Assembly (NCBI GenBank): GCA_001938485.1 | Contig: MQRK01223189.1 | Location: 1-55,677 of the forward strand | Source of the DNA: Girardia tigrina | Lineage: Eukaryota | Length of the DNA stretch: 55,677 nucleotides | Direction: 5' to 3' | Shown here: in pieces, positions 2,903-43,859 of the stretch | Numbering within the stretch: position 1 is the stretch's first letter | Layout: each line of letters opens with the position of its first letter | The notes under the pieces: model-generated | Seen by the model: only the letters and a program-made list of their open reading frames with translations | Database searches by the model: none | What the model was told of the DNA's origin: nothing | Program-made: the position numbers and the translations under genes

Positions 2903-4604
2903 AAAATTCGAAAGCCAATTGAAAATATTTATTAATTTCGATGGTTTAACCGTCATCGTCAGAACAAATGATTTTTCAAACGAAATTCACTTATATAGTG
3001 CAGTTAATGATTATGTAATCAATACGTAATCAGTACATCATTTAAAAAATCTCAACAAAGTTGTAGAGAATGCAGTTTGAACGTTAATTTTAGGATCCAA
3101 AGATCTTATATATAACGATTCACATGTCACTCTCTCCCAATAATTTTTAAATTGAGTGCACAGAATTTTAAAGTGTTGTGAAGTTATATCTCCTTTACAA
3201 TGTCTTCTATGTCCTGCAATGTTACTTCCACCTTCATTGCAACTGTGTTCCTGGATTCTCTTACAGAGATGACATGAAGTCTCTCCAATGTGTGTGGCGT
3301 TACACCCATTACATGTATATTGGTAAATGAGATCCGAACAAAATCCAAATGGCGTTGGAGATTTATTGCCAAACATGCTTTCAATTTTCTGGGTCCAGGA
3401 CATTACTTTTAAACTTATTGCATTATCTAACGCTTTCAAAATATAATTTTTAAATATTTTAAACCCCTCTGAATATGGCACAGTTAACACATAACCAATT
3501 CCCAAACTTTTATCATTAGTGGTGCAAGATTGCTCTTGATCTTGAACATCTAAAATTTTAGTATTACTTTTTTTGCAATTAATTTATCAATAGTTTCCTT
3601 TGTTAATTTCTCCACTATCGATTTTGAATATCCGTTATCATATAATAATTTGTTTAATTTATTTAGGCTGTCAATACATCCTTTATATGTAGATGAAAGA
3701 GCCCACGAGCGAAAAATAAGACCTTTAATCATATTTCGACGATATTTTGATTCACAGAAACTGATCGGTGTTGTATACAACCCAGTGTCAGTTTTCTTTC
3801 TGTAAATCTCCGTCTCATAACGTCCGTTTTTTCTCTCAAGAAAGGACAATTTCTTATCTTGTTCTTTCTCCATAGTAAACTTTACATTTGAATGCAAAAA
3901 ATTCATATAATTTAAAAATGGAGAAATATCTGTTTCATTTTGAAAAATCAAAAAAATATCATCAATATAGCGTTTATATGCTAGAGGTTTCCAACCGACA
4001 AAAGAATCGATTTTATCTTCAATACTCGAAAGAAATATTGAAGCCAAAGTGGGGGCTAATGGTGAACCCATAGCTACTCCATCAACTTGTTTGTACCAGT
4101 CATTATTGAACAAAAAATGCACATCTGACGTGGCAAAACTTAACAATTCACGAAATGCAACTTCAACAAGTATACTATGATTAGTAGTATTACTTCTCCA
4201 AAGATTGCAACACAAATCAATAGTCTCTTTTAATGGAACGTTTGTAAATAAACTGACAACATCAAAAGATGCCATAATTTCATCATTATTTTTAATATCA
4301 AATTTTGAAATAAAATCCACAAATTCAAAACTATCAAACTAGCTTTAATTTCTTCGCGACATCTTTATTTATGTGATTATTATTAGTCAATTTTAATAAT
4401 AGGGAACTCAAATATTCGTCATCTTTCAATGGGGGAAATTTTCCGTTTTATCTAAATTTTTCGATTTTCTTAAATTGAGAACACTTTAGTATTTAATTCA
4501 TTTTCTTATTATAATCAAAATCATTCAATATTACTAACCCATTTCCCTTGTCAAATTTACAAATATTTACTTTTTTTAATAAGATTTTTTAATATTAAAA
4601 ATTC
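2903..4604 (-). mobile_element. 5'-truncated Penelope-like retroelement (RT + GIY-YIG endonuclease), disrupted
   Basis: FDKGNG, SFDVVSLFT, GVAMGSPLAP and YIDD in 3550-4560; IYQYTCNGCNATHIGET...RIQEH (GIY-YIG with CCHH) in 3038-3505; apparent TSD TTTAATT at 2896-2902 and 4605-4611. Confidence 0.93.
2927..2965 (-). ncRNA. Minimal type I hammerhead ribozyme in the Penelope 3' region
   Basis: GUU-CUGACGA-U-GACGG(UUAAA)CCAUC-GAAA-UUAAUA-AAU; one stem II mismatch; palindromic stem III AUUAAU. Confidence 0.7.
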
Positions 4605-7361: not shown

Positions 7362-8387
7362 AATTAGTGTCACCAACCCATATAGTATCACAACCCAAAT
7401 AATATCACCAATTTAAAAAATTTTTAGTGATACTATTTAATTTGTACCACGACCCTATCAGTATCACTATTTAAGTTTTTAAAAATCACTGGAAAAAAAT
7501 CATTAATTTTTAAAATCATTTAATTAAATTGAGAGTAACAGCATTGATTTCTATTTGGGCAGATGGTAGGAAGGTAATGCCTTTGGTAATCCATAAAGGA
7601 AAGGATGGAAGTCCTATTTGTACACAAAATCGTATCTTGCATACTACTCAATCAAAATCCTGGGTTAACCAAGAATTAATTATAAAGTGGATCGACCATA
7701 TGTTTCCTTTGATTGATTTAAGCAACGGTAAGTGTATTATTTGGGATTCGTGTCGAGCTCATTTAGGCCTACAAGTAAAAAAAAACATTGTATTAAGAGA
7801 AATTTTGAAATGATCGTGATCCCAGGGGGATCGACACCTTATCTACTGGCAGGAGATATAGGAATTTTTCGTTCCTTGAAAGATATGATATATTTTCGTA
7901 TTAATGAATGGAAGAACTCTGATGCTGTTGTTTATTCCAAAAATTGTAATCCAAAACTACCATCGAAGGAATTGGTTAATTCATGGGTCGGAGAATCTTT
8001 GAATGAATTGAAAACCGAAACTTAATAATATCATCAGGATATAGTTTGAACCCTGGCGATTGGCATATAGCAAAGCCTGATGTGTATGGTAGAAAGTTTT
8101 GCGAGGCTTGGGCTATTTCAAACCAGATTGAACAATTTCCCTACGAGTCTATTTCCGGGGAAGATATAGATGATCAGGATGTAGACTGTTTAGATGATAA
8201 TGATGATGTCGAATGTTTGAATGTCGTTAATGAATAAAGTATTATTGACAATTGTTTTCTTTTTTTATTCATATTTTGATATTTTTGTTAATGGGAATTG
8301 AAAGCACCAAATAGTATCACCAACTTAAAAAAATTTTAGTGATACTATTTAAATAGTATCAGTGATACTATCTCGCGATATCCGTTA
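7362..8387 (+). mobile_element. Internally deleted pogo-family (DDE_1) transposon, copy 1
   Basis: RVTALISIWADGRK, IIWDSCRAH, IPGGSTPYL...DIGIF; repeated AGTATCAC subterminal motifs at both ends; frameshift in the A-run near 7790. Confidence 0.8.
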
Positions 8388-8624
8388 TATACGTATATAT
8401 TATTTTTTTGACATTTCGTTCATTACTCTAATTTGTTACTCGTTCGAAGGCAATTAAGGAACAACGGTCTGTTATTAATTTTTTACGTAAAAAGAGACAC
8501 AAACGTCACTTAAACGGGTAAAATGACGCAAAACACATATACTATTGAGTGTTTATAATGATCAACGACTTTTTNNNNNNNNNNNNNNNNNNNNNNNNNN
8601 NNNNNNNNNNNNNNNNNNNNNNNN

Positions 8625-9516
8625 AAAAATCATTAATTTTTAAAATCATTTAATTAAATTGAGAGTAACAGCATTGATTTCTATTTGGGCAGATGGTAGG
8701 AAGGTAATGCCTTTGGTAATCCATAAAGGAAAGGATGGAAGTCATATTTGTACACAAAATCGTATCTTGCATACTACTCAATCAAAATCCTGGGTTAACC
8801 AAGAATTAATTATAAAGTGGATCGACCATATGTTTCTTTTGATTGATTTAAGCAACGGTAAGTGTATTATTTGGGATTCGTGTCGAGCTCATTTAGGCCT
8901 ACAAGTAAAAAAACATTGTATTAAGAGAAATTTTGAAATGATCGTGATCCCAGGGGGATTGACACCTTATCTACTGACAGGAGATATAGGAATTTTTCGT
9001 TCCTTGAAAGATTTGATATATTTTCGTATTAATGAATGGAAGAACTCTGATGCTGTTGTTTATTCCAAAAATTGTAATCCAAAACCACCATCGAAGGAAT
9101 TGGTTAATTCATGGGTCGGAGAATCTTTGAATGAATTGAAAACCGAAACTTAATAATATCATCAGGATATAGTTCGAACCCTGACGATTGGCATATAGCA
9201 AAGCATGATGTGTATGGTGGAAAGTTTTGCGAGGCTTGGGCTATTTCAAACCAGATTGAACAATTTCCCTACGAGTCTATTTTCGGGGGAAGATGTAGAT
9301 GATCTGGATATAGACTGTTTAGATGATAATGATGATGTCGAATGTTTGAATGTCGTTAATGAATAAAATATTATTGACAATTGTTTTCTTTTTTTATTGA
9401 TATTTTGATATTTTTATTAATGGGAATTGAAAGCACCAAATAGTATCACCAACTTAAAAAAATTTTAGTGATACTATTTAAATAGTATCAGTGATACTAT
9501 CTCGCGATATCCCTTA
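8625..9516 (+). mobile_element. pogo-family (DDE_1) transposon fragment, copy 2 (near-identical duplicate across a 50-N gap)
   Basis: ORF 8659..9153; 8625-9703 repeats 7495-8574. Confidence 0.8.
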
Positions 9517-9529
9517 TATACGTATATAT

Positions 9530-10040
9530 TATTTTTTTGACATTTCGTTCATTACTCTAATTTGTTACTCGTTCGAAGGCAATCAAGGAACAACGGTCTG
9601 TTATTAATTTTTTACGTAAAAAGAGACACAAACGTCACTTAAACGGGTAAAATGACGCAAAACACATATACTATTGAGTGTTTATAATGATCAACGACTT
9701 TTTAGGGATACAAACTACTTGTTGGACGTAAACAATCAGTGGAGGACAATGAATTACAGGGAAGGTCAAAAACCTTTGCAATGACTGAGTCGATTTAAAA
9801 AATCTTGGAATTCGAATTCAACGATTGCTAAGTGATACTAAAGATTATGGAAGACATAAAATATCAACAAAGAAACAGTTTGTGAAATTCAGGAAAAGGA
9901 TATTGACAAAACGAAGGTCTGAGCTTCATTTGTTCTGTACGTACGAAAATTTCCATCAAAAATCAATCCAGTACTTTCTTAATTTATTTGAAAGGGATAC
10001 AAAAAGGTTTATTACTTGCAATGAAAAAGACATTTTGTAG
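9530..10040 (+). mobile_element. Highly decayed mariner 5' half
   Basis: Remnant peptides VEDNELQGRSKT (cf. D..RSGRP.T), KV*ASFV (cf. K..ARWVP), RFITCNEK (cf. ITGDE.W). Confidence 0.5.
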
Positions 10041-28345: not shown

Positions 28346-31300
28346 TAATATTTTAGTAAACGATTTTAACTTAAATTTAATTTATTTAATTTATTAAATT
28401 TAATATATTTTAAAAATTAATGTTCATTTAAAAAATTACATAATACCTTTTTATTCAATAAAATTTAAGAAATTAAAACTTAATATTAAAAAATTTTTCA
28501 TTCATTGTTTTTTTAGATTTGAATACTTAAACAAAAACTATATCAATCAAAGAAAGATGACCTCTGAAAATTGATGTGAAGAATCTGTTTGTGTTGTCAA
28601 TAAATGTTTGCATTCAAATTGTGATGTTGTTAATAGTCCATATTTCAGGTGTCTTCTATCATTATATGCCTTTTTTCAATACGAAAGAAATTATGGGAAA
28701 ACTTGGCTTTATCTACCAAGCTTCTAATAGGCTTGATGACCATATTAAATATTGTTTTATTATGTAAATTTAAAAAACTTTCTAAGATAAACAATTAAAG
28801 CAATAATTTTGCTTAATGTGGTAAATAATAAATATCAATAAATAAAAATTGTTGAGATTTATGCAAAATAGATTATTTATTAATTATTCTTACTTGGGAC
28901 TGAACATTCACTTTTGCCCCATGTTCAATCAAGAAATTGACCACTTCAGATTTTCCAGCTAAACATGCAATGTGAAGAGCTGTATTTCCTTTTTTCGTTG
29001 CCGCATTGACATCAGCATTTCTGGCTAAAAGAATTTTGACTATTTCAACTAATCCTTCTTTAGATGCTATATGTAATGCATTTAGTCCATTCTGTAATAA
29101 GTCAAAAACGTTATAATTTTGTTAAAAATAAATAATTCATTTATAATTAAACTTTATAAAAGTAGTATTTTTACCTCCTCAAAAAGCATCATCATTTTCC
29201 TTCTTTTTTTCAATACTTTTATCAATATAAAATTATGAATTTAAAGTTATTTAATTTCAATAAATTAAAATCGTGAAGACATTTCCTAGAGGGCAGTTTG
29301 AAAAATATGAAAAGTTAAAAAATTATAAAATTGATCATTCACAAAAATCGTAAGAAAGACAAAGAAACAAAAAACTGCTTATTTTAATAAAGATTATTAA
29401 TAATATTGTATTATTGTATATTATTAATAATATTCTAGGAAATTTATACGAAGGAACTTTATACGATTGGAAAATTATACAATCGGAAATTTATACAAAT
29501 AAAATTAATACAAAGTTTTTTATACGAAAAATTCATTTTAAACGAAATTTTTGCGACTAAAAAATGAAAATTTATGCGAATGGAAATTTATAAAAATAAA
29601 AGTTTTTGAATAAAAATTTATTTTGATTTTAAAATACAAAATATGTTTTGTGTTCGAAATTTTTAAAGTATTTTCAATAGCTACAATAACTTCTGTTCAA
29701 AAGGTTTTGGAAACAAGTTTAAAATACACAACATTTACTGCATTCAAAGGCGAGTTTAATGTAATATTACATTTTATTTTATTTTATTTACATAAGATTT
29801 TGGTAAATATTTTTACAATACAATCAAAAAAGACAATCTAAATTTAGATATATATTAATAATTAAAACTAATAAATAAGCCAATTTAGAATTTAATGTTA
29901 TGAGCCACTCCACGTAAATAATCTCATTGTCATTGTGTAAATTTCCGTTTTTATAAATTTCTATTTTTTAGTCCTAGAAATTTCCATTAGTATTAGGTTG
30001 TGAAAAATAATGTCGTTTTTTGAATGGTCCTGATTTTTGATCATATTTTGAAATAAATCTTTATCATTTATTTATGTTTTATACATAATTTCAAAGCTTC
30101 TTTAAAACTCTATATTTCTATGATACTTTGTTTAAATATAAATTTTAAAATAACGTGTTTATTTAAATAGTTGTCAATATGCAAAAAGCGCAATTACGAG
30201 CAATTTTTTATATGAATTCAAACTTGGCCACAAAGCATCGGAGGCCGCCGAAATATCAACGGTACATTGGGCGATGGAATCACAAACGAACGTATGTTAC
30301 AACGTTGGTTCAAAAAATTTCAAGAAGTAGATGAGATCTTCAAAGATGATGATGGCCGCGGACGGAAACCTGTTATTGAAAATGAAAATTTGAAGGCTCT
30401 AGTAGAAGCAAATCCACGCACAACAGTTCGACAGTTTGCGGAGGAACTAGGTGTCACGATAGGAACAATTTCAAACGATCTGCGTGACATTGGGAAGTCG
30501 AAAAAACTAGATAAATGGATTCCTTACAAATTAACTGACAATCAAAAAATGCGTCGGTTTGAGGCATCCTCTTCATTTCTTCTGTGGAACAAGAATGATC
30601 CGTTTCTGGACCGAATTATAACGTGTGATGAAAAGTGGATTCATTACAACAATCGGAGATGTTCTTATCAATGGTTGGACCACGATCAAGCTCCGCAACC
30701 CTTTCCGAGGTCGAAATTGTACCAAAGAAAGATGATGGTAACTGTTTGGTGATCTGCAGCCGGTGTTATTCATCATAACTTCCTAAATACAGGAGAAACA
30801 ATTACGGCAGAGAGATACGGTCAGGAAATTGTCAAAATGAACCAGAAACTCCAATAACAACTAGTATTAGTCAATAGGAAGGGGCCTATTCTTCTACACG
30901 ATAACGCTCGGCTACACATCGCACGTCTGACAATGTAACTGTTAAACGAACTTGGCTACAAAATTTTGAGTCATTCACCATACTCACTTGACCTCTCGCC
31001 TACTGATTATCCCTTTTTCAAACATCTTGACATTTTTCTCCAGGAGAAATACTTCAAAAATCAAGGGGATGCTAAAACTTTCCTCAACGATTTCATCACC
31101 TCCAGAAAGCCAGAATTTTATGCAACCGGAATAAATAAACTTGTGCCAGGTTGGCAAAAGTGTATTGATGCAAAAGGTTGTTATTTCGATTAGTAAAAAT
31201 GATTCTACGCTGAGATATTTGTCTTTAATTAAGGTTAAAAAACGACATTATTTTTTAAACAATCTAATATAAATTTCCTTCGTATAAATGTTTTCGAAGA

Positions 31301-34300
31301 AAATTCCGGACACGTAATAAAATTACTCTGTAAAAATATAAACTTAAAAAACATATGCTCATGAATATTTAAAGTTATCGGCTGTTGTACTGTTAATGTT
31401 ATATCTACCTTATTGAAATAGCCCATGATTTTAATTAATAATTTAAAATTGTGGGTGAATGTGGTGTGTTTATTTGAGTGAACTGAAATTGGAATTGTGA
31501 GTCTCCCACCCAATTGGAAAATTTGTGTCTTATTGTATTTGAGATAACTGATCATTTGAACAGAATTGACATTTTTTTAATTAATGAAACCTTAATAATC
31601 CAATAAACTTTAAATTTAAAAAGTAATAAGTTAGGATATTTTTTAAATTTAAGTATTTTTTTAAAAATTCAAATGAGCATATTTAACGTATTAATTAAAG
31701 ACATTTTAGAAATAATTTTACAATTAGTTTAAATTAGCTTTTATAATTTAAATTAAATATTTGTAGAATAAATTAAAACATAAACTACGTAAGTTTTTGC
31801 AAAGTAATTGTATTTTAAAATATTTTTACATTGTGAATTTTAAATGAAATATAAATAAAATAATTTTCAAGTTAAAAACTCTAAACTGATTAATTTAATA
31901 ACGAATATCTAAATATTTTAAAATTAAATAAATATTAAATTTTATTGAAAAATGAGAAAATTTGTTCTAATAATCATTATTAAAAAATCTAGAAATAAGC
32001 AGAGCACGCCACTATGGTTTCTCCACGCCAATGCGCCAGTGCACACCACGAGCATTCCTTGGGCCACAATGATAATAAATGTTTTAATAATAATTGTGTC
32101 AGTGATCTTAACAACACCTTTGGACTATGTGAGGAATATTTTAAATTGTTTGAATGTGTAAATGTAGTGATGCTGTATGTTGATTTAAGTATTAATATGG
32201 CAAGAAAGTTTTTTCCATTACTCTCCACTTCTAAATAAGAAAGAAAATTACCATTCTAATGCTATTTTTTGTTAATTCATGTTTATAAATATTTTTGGCA
32301 AAAAAATCAATCGATATATATATACATATATATATNNNNNNNNNNNNNNNNNNNNNNNNNNNNNNNNNNNNNNNNNNNNNNNNNNNNNNNATATATATAT
32401 ATATATTAATTTATGTCATATGATCACTTTTCATATTGGATTTAAAAGGTTGTCGGTAAAAATGAAGTTTTCAAAATCTAACAGTCGATTCTATGCATAC
32501 GTTGAGTGGAAAAATTGAACGACTGCAGCTGAAACCTATAGAAATTTGTTCAATGCCTTCCCTGATGATTACCCAACAAAAACCGTACAAGAAATAAGAA
32601 GATTCTGTGGCATGGTCAATTTTTTACCACAAATATCTATTGTATAGATATTTCTTGTACGGTTTTTAGTGGTTGTACTAGAAATATCTATACAATATCT
32701 ACAACCACCAAAAACCGTACAAGAAATAAGAAGATTCGATATTACCTTTAAAATTTTAAATGTATTTCTTCACTTTCTCTTTTCAAGAATTCACAGCCTA
32801 AATCTGAATAAAATATCTGTTCCGCACAATAAGAAACTGGTTCTCTGATTTTACCTCAGGCAAGCGGCTATCATTGGACGATCACCCACGAAGTGGACGT
32901 CCTTCAGCAGCAACAACTGATGATTTGATTGAAAAAGTTAGGAGCATAATTGAGCAGGATGAAAGAATGTCTTTAAGACACATAACTGAAATGCTTGATG
33001 TCAACAAAGAATCAATAAGGACAATCCCCCATGAAAATTTGAACAGGAAAAAGATTTTGAGCATCTGGATGCTTTATCAACTGACTGATGATCACAAACG
33101 ACAACGTATTGAATCCTCAAGAAATGTTTTGCAACTTGTGCAACAATATGGGAAAGAATACTTGATGAAACGATGGATAACAGTTGATGAAACGTGGATA
33201 TCATTTTCCCCTACATTATGGAGATCCGACTTACGAGTATGGGCAGTGGAGATGATCCTCGACCACGTAATGTTCAAAACAAAAATTTGGACGAAGCACA
33301 ATGCTTATTTTGGCATTCACAACTGTTGGTAAGTTTCATATCGAAGTAACAAAATCTGCTGAGGCTTTCAATTATGAAAGATATACAGAATTCATTCAAA
33401 ATAGTCTTTCGAAGTTTAGTAAAGACAGACGACGAGTGAATATGTGAGAAATTCTTTGGCAGCATGATAATGCTCGACCACATTCATCCAAGTTTACCAC
33501 GGAGTTTTTACAGAAAAAAACATGTTGAATTGATTAAACGAGCTCCATATTCGCCTGATTTAAATCAGTGTGACAAATGGCTATTTAAATTTTTAAAAGG
33601 ATCACTAAGAACAACATCATTTGCAAGTGAGGAAGAGGTCTTACAAGCGGTCAGTGATATTCTGAGGAATCTCTCACGAGAAAAACTTTCCACATGAATT
33701 TGATAAACTTTTTACACATGCTGAAAATGTTATTTTTTGTAATGGTGAATATACCGTTGTGTAGAAATATATACTTGTTGTTTTATATTTGTTTTATTTA
33801 GAAATTAGAAATACAGAGGAGTAACGGAAAAAACTTTTTTGCAATATTAATATGTTGAATTTAGAATGGTGATTCTCCCACCCAGATGGAAATTGGTATT
33901 TTTTCATTTAAATTTAAAGTGATTAACTATTCGAACATAATTAAAATAATCATTTTATAAGTTCATATTTTTAAATTAACAATTAAAATTAAGTTTAATA
34001 TTTTTTGGTAAAATTTAAATTAAATGTATTTTTAATAATTTGAAAACATTTGTATTATTTTGGGATTTATTGAGAAATGGTAAAATTTATTATTTTTAAT
34101 TAATATTAATTAATATATTTAAAAAATAATTTAGAAAAATTGTTCGAATAATCATGATTAAAAATAGAAATAAGAAAACCAATTGGAATGATGACAAACG
34201 ATGAAAGACTTTCTGAGAGTCATAATGACTCTAAATGTGATTGTAATAAAAGTTCAAACGCGACTTGTCTAAATGTTCTTAATAAATTATCCTAATATAT

Positions 34301-35089: not shown

Positions 35090-35738
35090 TAGAATATGAA
35101 ACCCCACTCAATATGTATTTGCTAGAAACAAAGCGTGAGTCAGCAGAGTAGAAACTAACTGGATAGAAGCCATCTTTGGAGATGCGAACCGGGACAATTC
35201 ATGGACTAGCGATGATGTCTTCCATTTTACGGGATCCTAAAGGTGTTATTCTTATGGATTGTGTGGATAAATGCATCACCATCAACGATACTTATTATAA
35301 CCAACTCGTGACAACCGCCAAAAAGAATAGACCGAAGCAGAAGAACTTAATACTATGGTTTTTCCACGACAATGTGTCAGTTCACGCAGCGGGCATTTCT
35401 CGGGTCTTAATTGAAGGTGCTGGAATAGTGCTTGTGGATCATCCACCGTACAGCCAAGATTTGGCACCGAACGATTTTTACCTCTTCAAACACCTTAAGA
35501 AACATTTGAGATGCATCCAGTTTGAATCCAAAGAAGATTTGAAGATTGCTTTGAAGGATTTCTTCTCCGAATACCCAAGAACATTTTAAAAGTTGTTTTC
35601 TGAGTTGAATATTCTTTGGAAGAAGTTTGTGCAATGAAATTGAAATTATGTTGAAAAATGATGCCTACTTACTTTAAGCTTGTTTTGCTATAAAAATAAC
35701 CCTTTTTGGAATTAATTTTACACATTGAACGTACCACA
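35090..35738 (+). mobile_element. Mariner 3' half (same family as 52740-54006)
   Basis: ORF 35176..35589 FFHDNVSVH, HPPYSQDLAPNDFYLF; eroded TIR ending GTACCACA|TA. Confidence 0.88.
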
Positions 35739-39077: not shown

Positions 39078-41669
39078 TAAATAAACTTACTTTTAGATTA
39101 AATGATATGTGAGAATAAAATTTCAAAACAAGTAAAAACAATTGATGTGTCTTTGGGAAAATTGGACATTTATAAATCACAAACAAAATATAATAACAAA
39201 CCAATTTGACAACTAAAATTAATAAGAGAATGTGAAAGGAAAAATTCATTAAATTCAGTCAAATGTCATTTGAAAATTGATAATATTTCAATGAGAATGT
39301 TTTATGTATTTTTGAACAAAAAATGGAATATTTAATTGCATTTATGAGACAATATTTATTTAACTTCTCGGTCTATGGAAAGAAAGTTAATTCTAGTGTT
39401 CAGAATATTGATGGTCTACTCCGTCATTCAGTTTCGCCAATCTTTGAGAAGTAAATTAAACACTCGGATATAAATATATATTTTGTTAAGATTTAATGAG
39501 AGTTTGTGATAAAGAAGGAAAACGCTCTTTTGTAAAAATATTTACAGAAAATGTTTCGCCATTAAAGTATCATCAGTTGTGAAGAGTTTTAAAAAATATA
39601 AGTCAATTATGCCATATTTTATCAATAAAGTTCGATTTATTTTGAATATAAACTCCTTTAGGTTTGTGAAATTTGGAAATAAATATTATTGTTTGTCATT
39701 AACAGTCTCAGCATCAATAATGGCTTGAATATTTTGTCAGGGTTTGGATGGTAAATCTAAATACTTCTAAGGAAACATAGCAGTATTTTGCATTTGAAAT
39801 TTTCATGATATTTTTCTGGGCATTAAAAAAGAAATTCATGGACGACTTCTTAAAATTTATGAATGAACCACGTAAGAATGTGGAATTTTAATGAAAAAAT
39901 AGCTTGATTTGTGATTACATTTTAAATTTAAAACCGATTTAAGCTTAATTTTGACTAAATTCACAATTGTAAGAAGAAAATAGCCCGTCAAGAGAAAATA
40001 GTCACCGAAAATATAATAATGTATTTTAAACCATGCTTAAATGTCGAAAGTGATCGGTCCAATCAAATTTAAGATTTTAAAATTGATTAATTACATAATA
40101 GTTGACATGACATGTAAATGATTTGTAATTTTGACAAGTGTTCACCATTGATAATGCATGATAATGGCAATATATGTTCTGGAAAGTAATTTTTTAAGAA
40201 ATGACGTCCTATTTTTTATTATGTATAATTTCAGCAACAACAAATAATGATTTATTTCAACGAAAAAATAATGATTTTTAAAATCAAGAATATTCAAACA
40301 AAATAATGTTCATTCTACATCTCCCCCAGATTCGACAGAATCTATATCGTCCCATGAGACGTAGTCCTGAAATTTCTTCGAAGGTCGATGCTCTCGAACA
40401 ACTGATTCCGCGTCGACTGGAATCGTGGTGGTATGTTCACTCGGTGATTCGTCTGGACGAAAAGGATAATCAATCAGCTCCGAGACAATCAACTCGGATC
40501 GCGGTCTGTGGTCGGCGACATGACGCAAAGAATCGACGTTTCTGATGGAGACAAGAAATTTAACAGGACTAATCACTTCTTTGATGACTCCTTCTGTCCA
40601 TTTTTCACTACAACACTGGATCTAATTTGGTTTAACCCAAACCTTTTCTCCCACTCTAAATTTAGATGAACAAATGGTTCCCTTACTTGCTTGATCGGTT
40701 AAGTTAACGATCAACTTCAATCAAGGCTTATACCCATACAGGAATTTAACTGGTGGACTATTGTTTATTCTGGGGGTGGTTTTCATCCAGTAAACCGCTT
40801 CCTGGATCCCTTTTCCAGCTCTCGTGGCTAACGCCTTAACGGTCCGGTGATTTCTTTCGATAATACCATTCCCGCTCGGTCTATTCACGGCTCGATACAC
40901 GACATTGATATTCCAGGCCTTCATCTCAGCAGTAAAAGCTTCGGAATGGAAAGACGAATAATTATCTACTAATAACTCGGCAGGGGCTCCACGTTCGAAA
41001 AATACATATCTCAGATTCTTGATAACTTCATGTGCTCCTTCGTCTCTGATGAGTCTCCAAATTGCAAATCTCGATGGCCCACAGTCAATGATGGTGAAGT
41101 ACCTGGACTCCTCGAACTTTGTGACATCAATTGCTATTATTTTTTAAGTTTCAGCGACATCCAAACTCCCTTTTTCTCATCGAACGGGTGCTGGGTATAT
41201 AGATTGACATCGATTACACTGAAGAATGATTTGCCAAATTTTTTCATCGCTGATGTTAACGTTAAATTCCTTCGCCAAAAAATTGATCTCTGGAGTCCCA
41301 TGGAATCGGTCGGCCCTTTCTCTATCACAATCATCAACTGCAACGCAATCCATTTTCTCACAACCAAAAAGCGCTTCTTTATCAATTTTCACATGCCCCA
41401 GCTGTTGGATCACGTCGAGACCAACGATGGCGTTATACTCCGGCAGCAATTTATCAATAATCAAACCCCACGTAATGCATTTGACATTACCGATTACCAC
41501 CTTAAACTTAGTCTCTGAGGCTTGCACTTTACTACCATCCATCATTGTGATCCACCTGTTGAATTTCTTCGGTGCACCAACGACAGTGGTTCTAGACGCG
41601 CCAGAATCAATTAACGGATCAACTTCACGACCGTTTATAATAAGAGACATGGTAATTAAGTTCGCTCCA

Positions 41670-41716
41670 GGAGTACATCCGGCCACTACTGCGACGTACT
41701 CCGGTCCCCGTTTCCC
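41670..41716 (-). promoter_or_regulatory. -1 programmed ribosomal frameshift signal (gag-pol)
   Basis: G GGA AAC heptamer in the gag frame, 7-nt spacer, 10-bp stem GGAGUACGUC/GAUGUACUCC; the pol ORF is in the -1 frame. Confidence 0.8.
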
Positions 41717-42481
41717 GCATGACAATTTCTGGCAGAATAACCATTACCATTACATGATTTACATTTTAGCGCGTTCCTCAACTCGTAGACAAAATGGCCT
41801 TTCTGGGGGCATTTAAAGCACCTGACGTTGGACTTTGAAAACGGTGAGGAGCCTTTCAAACGGTTTCCTTCCGCCGATCTGACCTCACTGTCATCAGGTT
41901 CATGTGACCTAGCATGGGCTTTAGCCTTGCCAGAATTGAAACCACCACGCTCTCCCGAGATGTTAGGTCGAGACGCGACCATTGATAAGTCCGTTAGACC
42001 GCTCCTTTCGACCTTCAGCAGCTCCCTGACCAGCGTCAGCATCTCCGAGAGCGATGTAACCTGGCTTCGTCTGATCTCCCTCTTGACATTCGCCGGCAGG
42101 CCATTGTAAAAGGCACGTATGGGTAAATTTTAAATAGGTCGAGCAATTTAATCAATTTCAGTGCAATACTCGTCGACAGTCTCACCGACTTTCAATTTAC
42201 GATCCAACAACTGCTTAAAAGTGCCGAACTCATCTACATCGAACGATTAAATTAAAACTGACATTACTTGCTCGCAGCTTCTTTACTTCTCTTCGATATT
42301 TTCGTAGATCTTGAATACCGCTCCCTCGAGGATTAACGGTAAGATTTTAGCCAACTTTTTGGGATCGGAAATTCCCTGACATCCGGCAATGATTTCGAAC
42401 TTAGTTCTCCATTCTCTAATTGGAGTCGACTTTCCGGCGAATCGAGGAATAACGGTCAATAACATTTTTAGATCTTTATTT

Positions 42482-42493
42482 GCCCGGATAGCT
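42482..42493 (-). other. Primer-binding site complementary to tRNA-Lys(UUU) nt 1-12
   Basis: AGCTATCCGGGC abuts the 5' LTR end; its complement GCCCGGATAGCT is the conserved 5' end of animal tRNA-Lys(TTT), from recall. Confidence 0.72.
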
Positions 42494-43859
42494 TGTAATT
42501 CCAGCAACAACAAAAAATGATTTATTTCAACGACAAAAGAATGATTTTTAAAATCGAGAATATTCAAACAAAATAATATGTCTCATTCTACATTATGTAT
42601 CTTGAATGACTATATAAATATTTATAACAGAATCATATATGATTTGATGTTTTTTTAATTGTTTGAAAAGAAATTATTATACTAAAATCTTTTTTTCAAA
42701 TAAACTTTATTAAAAGACAAATAGGCCGACAAAATAATAGTTTCAAATGGATACGATCAAAAGAGAACAAATTTAAATTTATCAAAGACTTTTTCTTATT
42801 TCTTTTACAATTTTACCTCAAATAATTCAGAGGTGAAGTAATGAAAAGGCTGAAAAGAACTGTAATTTTAAAAGGATTATAAAAATTGTTAAAAAAATAA
42901 TGGATATATTTTAATTAGGATAATAAAATATTTAAAAAGATTAATTGAAAAAGTGGGTTTTCCTGTACTATTTAAATTTTACTAATTGATTGTACTATGG
43001 GTATGGGGTTCGATATTGTAATAGAAAACCTGCAGTCCTGAATACAATAGTCTCTGCTCGGCTACCAATACCTAATAAATAATTAATATTACTCTCAATT
43101 GTTATACTTATTCGGTCAATGATATTAGAATAAATCATACTCTTTTAGTTAGCAATACAACGCAATCAGAATTTATATATGATATTAATAAACATTCCTT
43201 ATGAAATCTTTTCTTGATACAAACTTTAGTTTAAAGAATAGACATACAATCATTGTTCGTTACAACCAGAAAACAATAACCTTCCTTCCTCGATATTGAA
43301 CGGCTTCTGAACTTAAATCTTATATTTTAGTAACAAATTATTATAATTAACATATTATTTTTTATTATTTTCACATTAAAAAAACATTTTATTTATCAAA
43401 ATATAAGGGAAATAGAGCGTTGTAACCAACTGTCGGACTTAATTCCACATTAGCTTGTTTTGAAATGTGGTACAGGTTATTTTCCATTGATGCATTCGCT
43501 TTAGATCATTATTTTAAGGATAAGTGATAAGTCAATAAAAATTAAGTAAAATTTTGTCATTTTTAATAGTATTAAATACCTTTTATTAAATTTGCCTTAT
43601 TAAATACGTTGAACAATATGTTCCCGTAGTTTTCGTTGAAAAAAAAGTTTGCGTAAAATTAAATAAACATTTTCTTCAATGTTCACAACCCATGGTCAAT
43701 TTGTTGAAGTTTTTTTTGAAGAACGAATACAGAAAAAGCCGTTAAGCCAGTTTTCGAGGTTCTTTTTATTGTCAAAGGTAAGTCCGCTCATTTGGTTCGA
43801 CAGTGACAAAAATATACTGTAGTGATGTTTTATTCCTAGCTAAAAATAGCTGTCGTTTC

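Follow-up and report, generated by a model that had tools for sequence, protein, structure and literature searches.

In Girardia tigrina, a lineage of LTR elements very probably starts its minus-strand DNA at the 3'-OH of nucleotide 12 of a host tRNA, likely one freed by a cut in the D stem, and the 12-mer that stands directly behind the LTR would be its primer-binding site. One decayed member lies in the window, by which we mean the whole 55,677-nt stretch of contig MQRK01223189.1 analysed here. The position of the site, its complementarity to the head of the tRNA, its conservation and the occurrence of two tRNA-matched types in one host can be read directly from the sequence. Two independent kinds of copying accident, preserved in genomic copies, support a primer site that is real and lineage-wide. 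The first-pass annotation of the window had proposed minus-strand priming from a 5' tRNA piece of about 12 nt or from a tRNA cut at U12, a proposal that gains support from the match, its conservation and these copying accidents.

The element occupies 2,369 bp of the window's minus strand, running from 42592 to 40224 between two copies of a CATAA target-site duplication (left copy 42593..42597, right copy 40219..40223). Its 5' LTR (42494..42592; 99 bp, TG...CA) is very AT-rich and devoid of the CC dinucleotide, and its 3' LTR (40224..40319; 96 bp) is about 91% alike; both were delimited from the sequence and by LTR comparison, the second copy fixing the LTR boundary. The candidate primer-binding site, complementary to nucleotides 1–12 of host tRNA-Lys(UUU) by sequence comparison, adjoins the 5' LTR at 42482..42493, and a polypurine tract (40320..40327) adjoins the 3' LTR. 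Between them lie a gag region interrupted by stops and frameshifts (41722..42462; tblastn to residues 8–234 of P0033), with a zinc knuckle that gives a weak zf-CCHC_3 match (E 0.03), and an aspartic protease region with a LIDSGA motif (41486..41659; domain match E 0.012). A broken integrase follows (40505..41275), made up of a zinc-finger remnant, an rve core (E 2e-6) and a C-terminal part; the core carries the IIDCGPSRF motif by which the first-pass annotation had recognized it. RT and RNase H are gone. Comparison with sister copies places the deletion junction at 41302..41304 and its size at no less than 1.16 kb relative to one of them (L536). The deletion is private to this copy, being spanned otherwise only by two 100% identical assembly duplicates, and sister copies encode RT. 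The window copy is thus a dead member of the lineage with its primer site still intact. A 3.6-kb stretch around it (window 39450-43050; L534 and L535) is present in three assembly copies that are 100% identical including their flanks, and raw site counts in the host assembly given below include duplicates of this kind. Elsewhere the window holds other mobile-element fragments at 3550-4338, 8644-9153, 30216-30752, 32808-33332 and 35167-35589 (one RT and several DDE/mariner-type transposase pieces), as well as a tandem duplication of about 1.13 kb at 7495-9580.

The 12-mer AGCTATCCGGGC reads from 42493 to 42482 on the minus strand and follows directly on the LTR end ...TTACA (42494); it lacks TGG, and no spacer intervenes, as had been noted at first sight. 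The start of animal tRNA-Lys(TTT) to which it was then matched agrees exactly with the start of the host's own tRNA-Lys(UUU): a 15-nt tRNA-start pattern has four matches in the 1.43-Gb host assembly, and all four are tRNA-Lys(TTT) genes. Pairing ends at nt 1 and at nt 12 of the tRNA, with nt 13 (C) standing opposite the last A of the LTR. A 12/12 match has a chance of about 3e-8 at a given site, or about 1e-5 when 60 tRNAs and six offsets are allowed for; the earlier judgement that coincidence is unlikely holds up. The site is found 2,183 times in the genome. The best matches to host tRNAs all lie at the tRNA 5' end (Lys(UUU) 12/12, Lys(CUU) 11/12, others 10), in a compared set that is incomplete and lacks Asn, Gln, Glu, Gly, His, Leu, Trp and Val. 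The 12-bp duplex comes to -25.5 kcal/mol, against -14.9 for the 3' 25 nt of the tRNA. In a model without the true cloverleaf fold, about 14 is needed to open the unmodified tRNA.

Across the host genome, the count of 2,183 refers to the dinucleotide CA followed by the Lys-type 12-mer, for which a reversed-pattern control gave 0. A second type of site, AGCTATCGCGGC, is the complement of the host tRNA-Phe head and occurs 995 times after CA (control 0). Both types stand behind many unrelated LTRs. The conservation check proposed in the first-pass annotation comes out in its favour: the 12-mer is kept at the LTR boundary across many host LTR families. When loci were chosen by their Pol protein alone, 14 of 30 had the site at the LTR end, 11 of them exactly; the remaining 16 may stop short of their 5' LTR. 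Neither switching between Lys and Phe types inside one family (30 loci read out of 44 matches) nor a Thr-type copy (44 matches) was found.

No intact tRNA-Phe gene was found in the host assembly. Contig C181207 holds both 5' parts of host tRNA-Phe and 3' parts with the GAA anticodon arm, with acceptor strands complementary to each other. The two parts lie about 1.8 kb apart (G000:C181207:89-1960; L252, L254; also L201, L202, L253, L255) and some 16 bases are present in both, as would follow from insertion of an element into the gene with a long target duplication; there are several such units.

A perfect 12-mer can also stand away from the LTR boundary. One family has the Lys-type 12-mer inside its RT frame in 23 of 30 loci (L553-L581). 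On the contigs of examples such as G000:C184889:8262, C202697:16103 and C207798:7273, it follows a Phe-type site of the same strand at a distance of about 1.57 kb. This copy of the motif may be chance or a relic.

The first kind of copying accident concerns a single letter. Over their first 12 nt, host tRNA-Lys(CUU) and tRNA-Lys(UUU) differ only at nt 7. Among 40 genome matches read in Lys families, duplicates removed, the letter facing nt 7 is G in 18, C in 12 and A in 3, and G at this position makes a perfect complement of host tRNA-Lys(CUU). Phe families, in which the same neighbouring letters occur and G brings no tRNA match, serve as the control: there the counts are G 0, C 7 and A 8 (17 matches, duplicates removed), so that the G excess is 18/33 vs. 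0/15 (p=2e-4). It is also significant against the background T>G share in the elements (25/159; p=3e-7). A neighbouring T gave G 2, C 13 and A 10 (n=25), an imperfect control because G there makes CpG. The G copies are scattered over five families and form no clades. In the four families with trees, each G copy needs a separate change (2/2, 3/3, 5/5 and 5/5), on trees that are short and weakly resolved and with a shuffle test compatible with some shared descent.

The simplest reading of this pattern is that tRNA-Lys(CUU) occasionally primes and that its letter is then copied into the site. The alternative to copying is that mutants with a restored perfect match were selected, and this too requires pairing with the tRNA head. 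Double variants at the site without any tRNA match occur as well. One insertion (L337, L354, L359 and L360) has two letters changed, so that its site exactly complements the head of host tRNA-Ile(UAU), and as a single insertion it is anecdotal. Two further positions were inspected. At the last base of the LTR, into which tRNA nt 13 might be copied, four of the seven LTR-type loci among the first 30 of 159 matches have G. Two families are A/T-polymorphic at the base after the site, and in one of them the pattern follows the subfamily; a mutation hot spot there is not shown by the counts (8/121 vs. 91/2,903 elsewhere, p=0.06).

The second kind of accident consists of deletions and jumps at the far end of the site. 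We selected 31 matches with an unusual base behind the site and read 30 loci, which mostly had point changes. Three deletions begin exactly at the site's end: one of 1,588 bases that rejoins behind GGC (L591), one of 2,931 bases that rejoins behind GC (L600/L604), and one of 10 bases that also rejoins behind GC (L602). The Ile(UAU)-type insertion has the same 10-base deletion from the site's end as L602. Random positions are preceded by GC in 3% and by GGC in 0.9% of cases; such deletions were counted at the site's end only. Another locus (L599) rejoins after 13 extra bases, and in one (L026) the site turns back onto an inverted LTR. In retroviruses, deletions at the end of the primer site arise from faulty plus-strand transfer.

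In one insertion (L586/L605), the site is followed by the complement of tRNA-Asp nt 45 to 1 on the sense strand, and then by pol. Its junction has a 6-nt identity, host tRNA-Asp nt 46-51 being the same as tRNA-Lys nt 1-6. This polarity is the one expected if plus-strand DNA had ended at the copy of nt 1 and then jumped to a second tRNA. From these junctions, the end of the plus strand seems to lie at tRNA nt 1. An insert of about 550 nt at the site's end in another locus (L606) may be an unrelated insertion and was left out of the count. Further tRNA-Asp 5' pieces of about 22–41 nt occur within non-tRNA sequence (L613-L616, L618, L620).

The mechanism that these observations suggest would begin with the 5' strand of the tRNA acceptor stem, U8-A9 and the first D-stem strand pairing with the site over 12 bp. 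A cut in the D stem would create a 3'-OH at U12, and minus-strand DNA would start at the last base of the LTR. Judging from the genomic fossils, plus-strand strong-stop DNA would then copy the whole 12-nt primer and run off at tRNA nt 1, in which case no modified base is required as a stop. Because the site would be rewritten from the tRNA, this would also explain how it tracks the tRNA of the host. Tf1 reportedly uses an 11-nt self-primer freed by an RNase H cut, and by analogy the element's own RT-RNase H, acting on the annealed tRNA, is narrowly favoured as the maker of the U12 3'-OH, at somewhat short of an even chance within this explanation. A host-made, trimmed 5' fragment has nearly as good a claim, and other nucleases are an outside option. 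The proposed mechanism predicts a 12-nt RNA joined to strong-stop DNA.

Four other explanations of the site were weighed. An intact tRNA might anneal by nt 1–12 and, uncut, use the 2'-OH of U12 for priming, which would yield a branched RNA-DNA like that of retrons. This would fit all the genomic observations equally well, since plus-strand copying reads only nt 12 to 1, and it would give the exact register without a nuclease. We consider it unlikely all the same: the Pol of these elements folds like retroviral, foamy and caulimoviral RT, enzymes that prime from 3'-OH ends, and DNA-templated copying would probably have difficulty in crossing a 2'-5' branch to enter the primer.

Less likely again is that the tRNA head binds for packaging or for control of translation at the gag start codon, with DNA primed in some other way. 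Almost no leader precedes gag: at 49 sites from host and metagenomes, the median distance from the site to the first long-frame ATG is 4 nt, so a bound tRNA would cover the start region. Against such a role, the LTR boundary offers no other primer site, and both the copying of the Lys(CUU) letter and the junctions at nt 1 need the tRNA head as a template joined to DNA.

Self-priming of the Tf1 kind, or from a splice junction or hairpin in the element's own LTR, would reduce the tRNA match to a relic or chance, and is very improbable. Its appeal lies in the 12-nt length and zero spacer, which resemble the 11-nt self-primer of Tf1; hairpin sites, moreover, exist in fungal GalEa (available text of PMC5445492). 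Yet the 400 nt upstream of the site hold no complement to it longer than 3 nt in the window copy, or than 7 nt among 78 distinct sites, and LTRs diverge freely whereas the site tracks the tRNA. The first-pass annotation had likewise seen no complement in the LTR and taken Tf1-type self-priming to be unsupported. The sense strand of the loci gave no near-complement of the site either. Self-priming and a hairpin site are largely ruled out at the sequence level by the want of an adequate upstream complement, and a splice-built primer by the absence of CC from the window LTR, from which a splice could not build the primer. Finally, the recovered host tRNAs do not make up a full set, but a primer of the ordinary 3'-end or anticodon-half kind, from a tRNA outside that set, is barely conceivable for a site that does not start with TGG and finds its best matches among the recovered tRNAs exclusively at their 5' ends.

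Members of the family encode gag, protease, RT, RNase H and a DDE integrase in the order PR-RT-RH-IN, and resolved elements measure 3.7–4.3 kb. The 5-bp target duplication is exact in eight of 13 resolved elements; two are off by one base, and three have LTR starts misplaced by the script. Direct TG...CA LTRs, a polypurine tract and a target-site duplication mark them as LTR retrotransposons of Ortervirales type. A GATC- or GAATC-like word stands ahead of the G-run of the polypurine tract in many host and metagenome members. The family is also present in four contig-level sequencing runs, in which element ends are not visible.

Every one of the 33 scanned Pol proteins has DUF7047 and an rve core; none of them has the Gypsy RNase H domain (PF17917/PF17919) or the BEL/Pao domain (PF05380). 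RVT_1 scores in these proteins are weak (best E 2e-8), and a profile of the family RT reaches about 30 bits on five host Gypsy RTs and about 20 on two host BEL RTs. An RT tree with only those five Gypsy and two BEL sequences as references has saturated branches and is uninformative for placement. The predicted structure of one protein (P0003; pLDDT 79) matches retroviral, foamy and caulimoviral Pol at 8–19% identity, with 12–19% between the RT and its best structural matches. Sequence searches of the PDB returned retroviral and Ty3 chains at low scores, the NCBIfam profile search only transposase-type matches, and the protein atlas search only unnamed or generic RT clusters.

The element in the window had initially been called Gypsy, an assignment that the marker domains do not bear out: the layout works like that of Gypsy, and the Pol lacks the marker domains of both Gypsy and BEL. 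Ty3/Gypsy (Metaviridae) and BEL/Pao (Belpaoviridae) share with the lineage TG...CA LTRs, a 5-bp duplication, a zinc-knuckle gag and the PR-RT-RH-IN order; they differ from it by their marker domains and by the DUF7047 that every one of its scanned Pol proteins has, and further differences are the low RT scores and the small size of the elements. DIRS-like elements, which have a tyrosine recombinase and no target-site duplication and whose RNase H motif that of the lineage may resemble, are ruled out by the DDE integrase and the 5-bp duplication. Our fullest and most tentative proposal, with perhaps one chance in three of being right as a whole, is that the elements form an unplaced deep animal LTR branch, characterized by a DUF7047 Pol, whose RT-RNase H would anneal mature Phe or Lys tRNA by nt 1–12, cut it at U12, Tf1-like in trans, and recopy the 12-mer in each cycle. 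On that proposal, tRNA priming and self-priming would be linked, and the elements would be either a source or a target of very short 5' tRNA fragments.

Relatives occur well outside this host. Among 400 candidates, 240 longer proteins are integrase-related, with names from barnacle, leafhopper, whipworm and crab; no relatives were found in viral contigs. We fetched 78 metagenome loci by integrase alone and scanned them for shared gapped words. The site was the top shared word, present in 33 of the 78 loci and in 0 on the reverse strand. It occurs there in five variants (11, 9, 6, 4 and 3 loci) that differ only opposite tRNA nt 4–6, in the acceptor stem. The fly and human tRNA-Phe heads, as given in the available text of PMC7038984 and PMC11706605, are complementary to the commonest variant, and the second variant is the Phe type of Girardia tigrina. 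No tRNA match was seen for the other three variants (13 of the 33 loci). The strict motif was missing from 45 loci. A gag-start match was lacking in 34 of these; the other 11 comprised eight near variants and three incomplete or unclear cases, and none had TGG.

A midpoint-rooted gag tree, with 141 sequences grouped into 45 clusters, places the seven Lys-type clusters on one branch (96/98) among Phe-type families. The 17 host Phe-type clusters fall in several places, some of them among metagenome clusters, and yet have the common host variant. Because Lys forms one branch and Phe appears in several places, the ancestral primer was likely Phe(GAA), with a single switch to Lys(UUU) in the lineage of the host. 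The earlier claim that nt 1–12 of tRNA-Lys(UUU) serve as primer is thus supported for the Lys families, but for the lineage as a whole the primer is most likely tRNA-Phe(GAA).

If this interpretation is correct, the lineage adds a fourth kind of primer to the whole tRNA, half tRNA and self-primer listed for LTR elements in the accessible text of a survey (PMC6317226), one used by more than 3,000 sites in a single genome and by relatives in many metagenomes. A search for primer-binding sites at tRNA 3' ends only, which is the first step described in that text, would miss such sites. Very short 5' tRNA fragments would acquire a concrete role and target, and the elements themselves would probably be beyond the reach of 3'-tRF silencing. 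They would also offer a model of a possible relationship between tRNA priming and Tf1-type self-priming. The first-pass annotation knew of no clear description of the mode, and our literature search agreed, finding none of priming by tRNA nt 1–12; it covered literature other than subscription journals and supplements, with Repbase, Dfam and GyDB outside its scope. A search of the literature for six site sequences listed 16 papers, none of which has a title on transposons. The accessible part of PMC6238403 does not mention primers.

Among known systems, canonical priming from the 3'-CCA end is used by retroviruses, Ty1, Ty3, most Gypsy and BEL elements, and tRNA-Phe and tRNA-Lys3 also serve IAP, ETn/MusD and HIV (available text of PMC7472051). 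In retroviruses, according to the same text, the site is rewritten from the primer and a switch from Lys3 to Lys1,2 is possible, which resembles the copying and switching that we infer for the present lineage. The two differ in that the lineage uses the opposite end of the tRNA, without CCA, and that its plus strand would stop at the 5' end of the primer, not at a modified base. Canonical 3'-end priming is ruled out here by a site that lacks TGG and is complementary to the tRNA 5' end.

Half-tRNA priming is closer. It is described for Drosophila copia, yeast Ty5, plant Osser, Bryco and Bianca, and fungal Copia/Helenus and FunCo1 (PMC6317226, PMC10886601 and PMC5445492, in their available portions); the latter two sources also include anticodon-half variants, and PMC5445492 a hairpin site. 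These systems are primed by a 5' portion of a tRNA, so that a cut tRNA supplies the 3'-OH, and the present one probably is as well; in both, the site has no TGG. In half-tRNA systems, the cut falls in the anticodon stem-loop, only the end of a half of about 40 nt pairs, and the mode is reported in these texts only for Copia; in the lineage described here, pairing would span nt 1–12, in the acceptor strand and D stem, right to the 5' terminus, the matched tRNAs are Phe and Lys, and the genes stand in the order PR-RT-RH-IN. A copia/Ty5-type half-tRNA site was rejected, the best host-tRNA matches being at the 5' end and not in the anticodon stem-loop.

The remaining comparison is with the self-priming of Tf1 and sushi elements (named in the available text of PMC6317226 and PMC5445492). 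In both modes the site abuts the LTR, and the primer would be very short, would come from the 5' terminus of an RNA and would need a cut right behind the paired stretch. The Tf1 primer comes from the element's own transcript, whereas the lineage in Girardia tigrina, whose LTR holds no complement, would take its primer in trans from a host tRNA.
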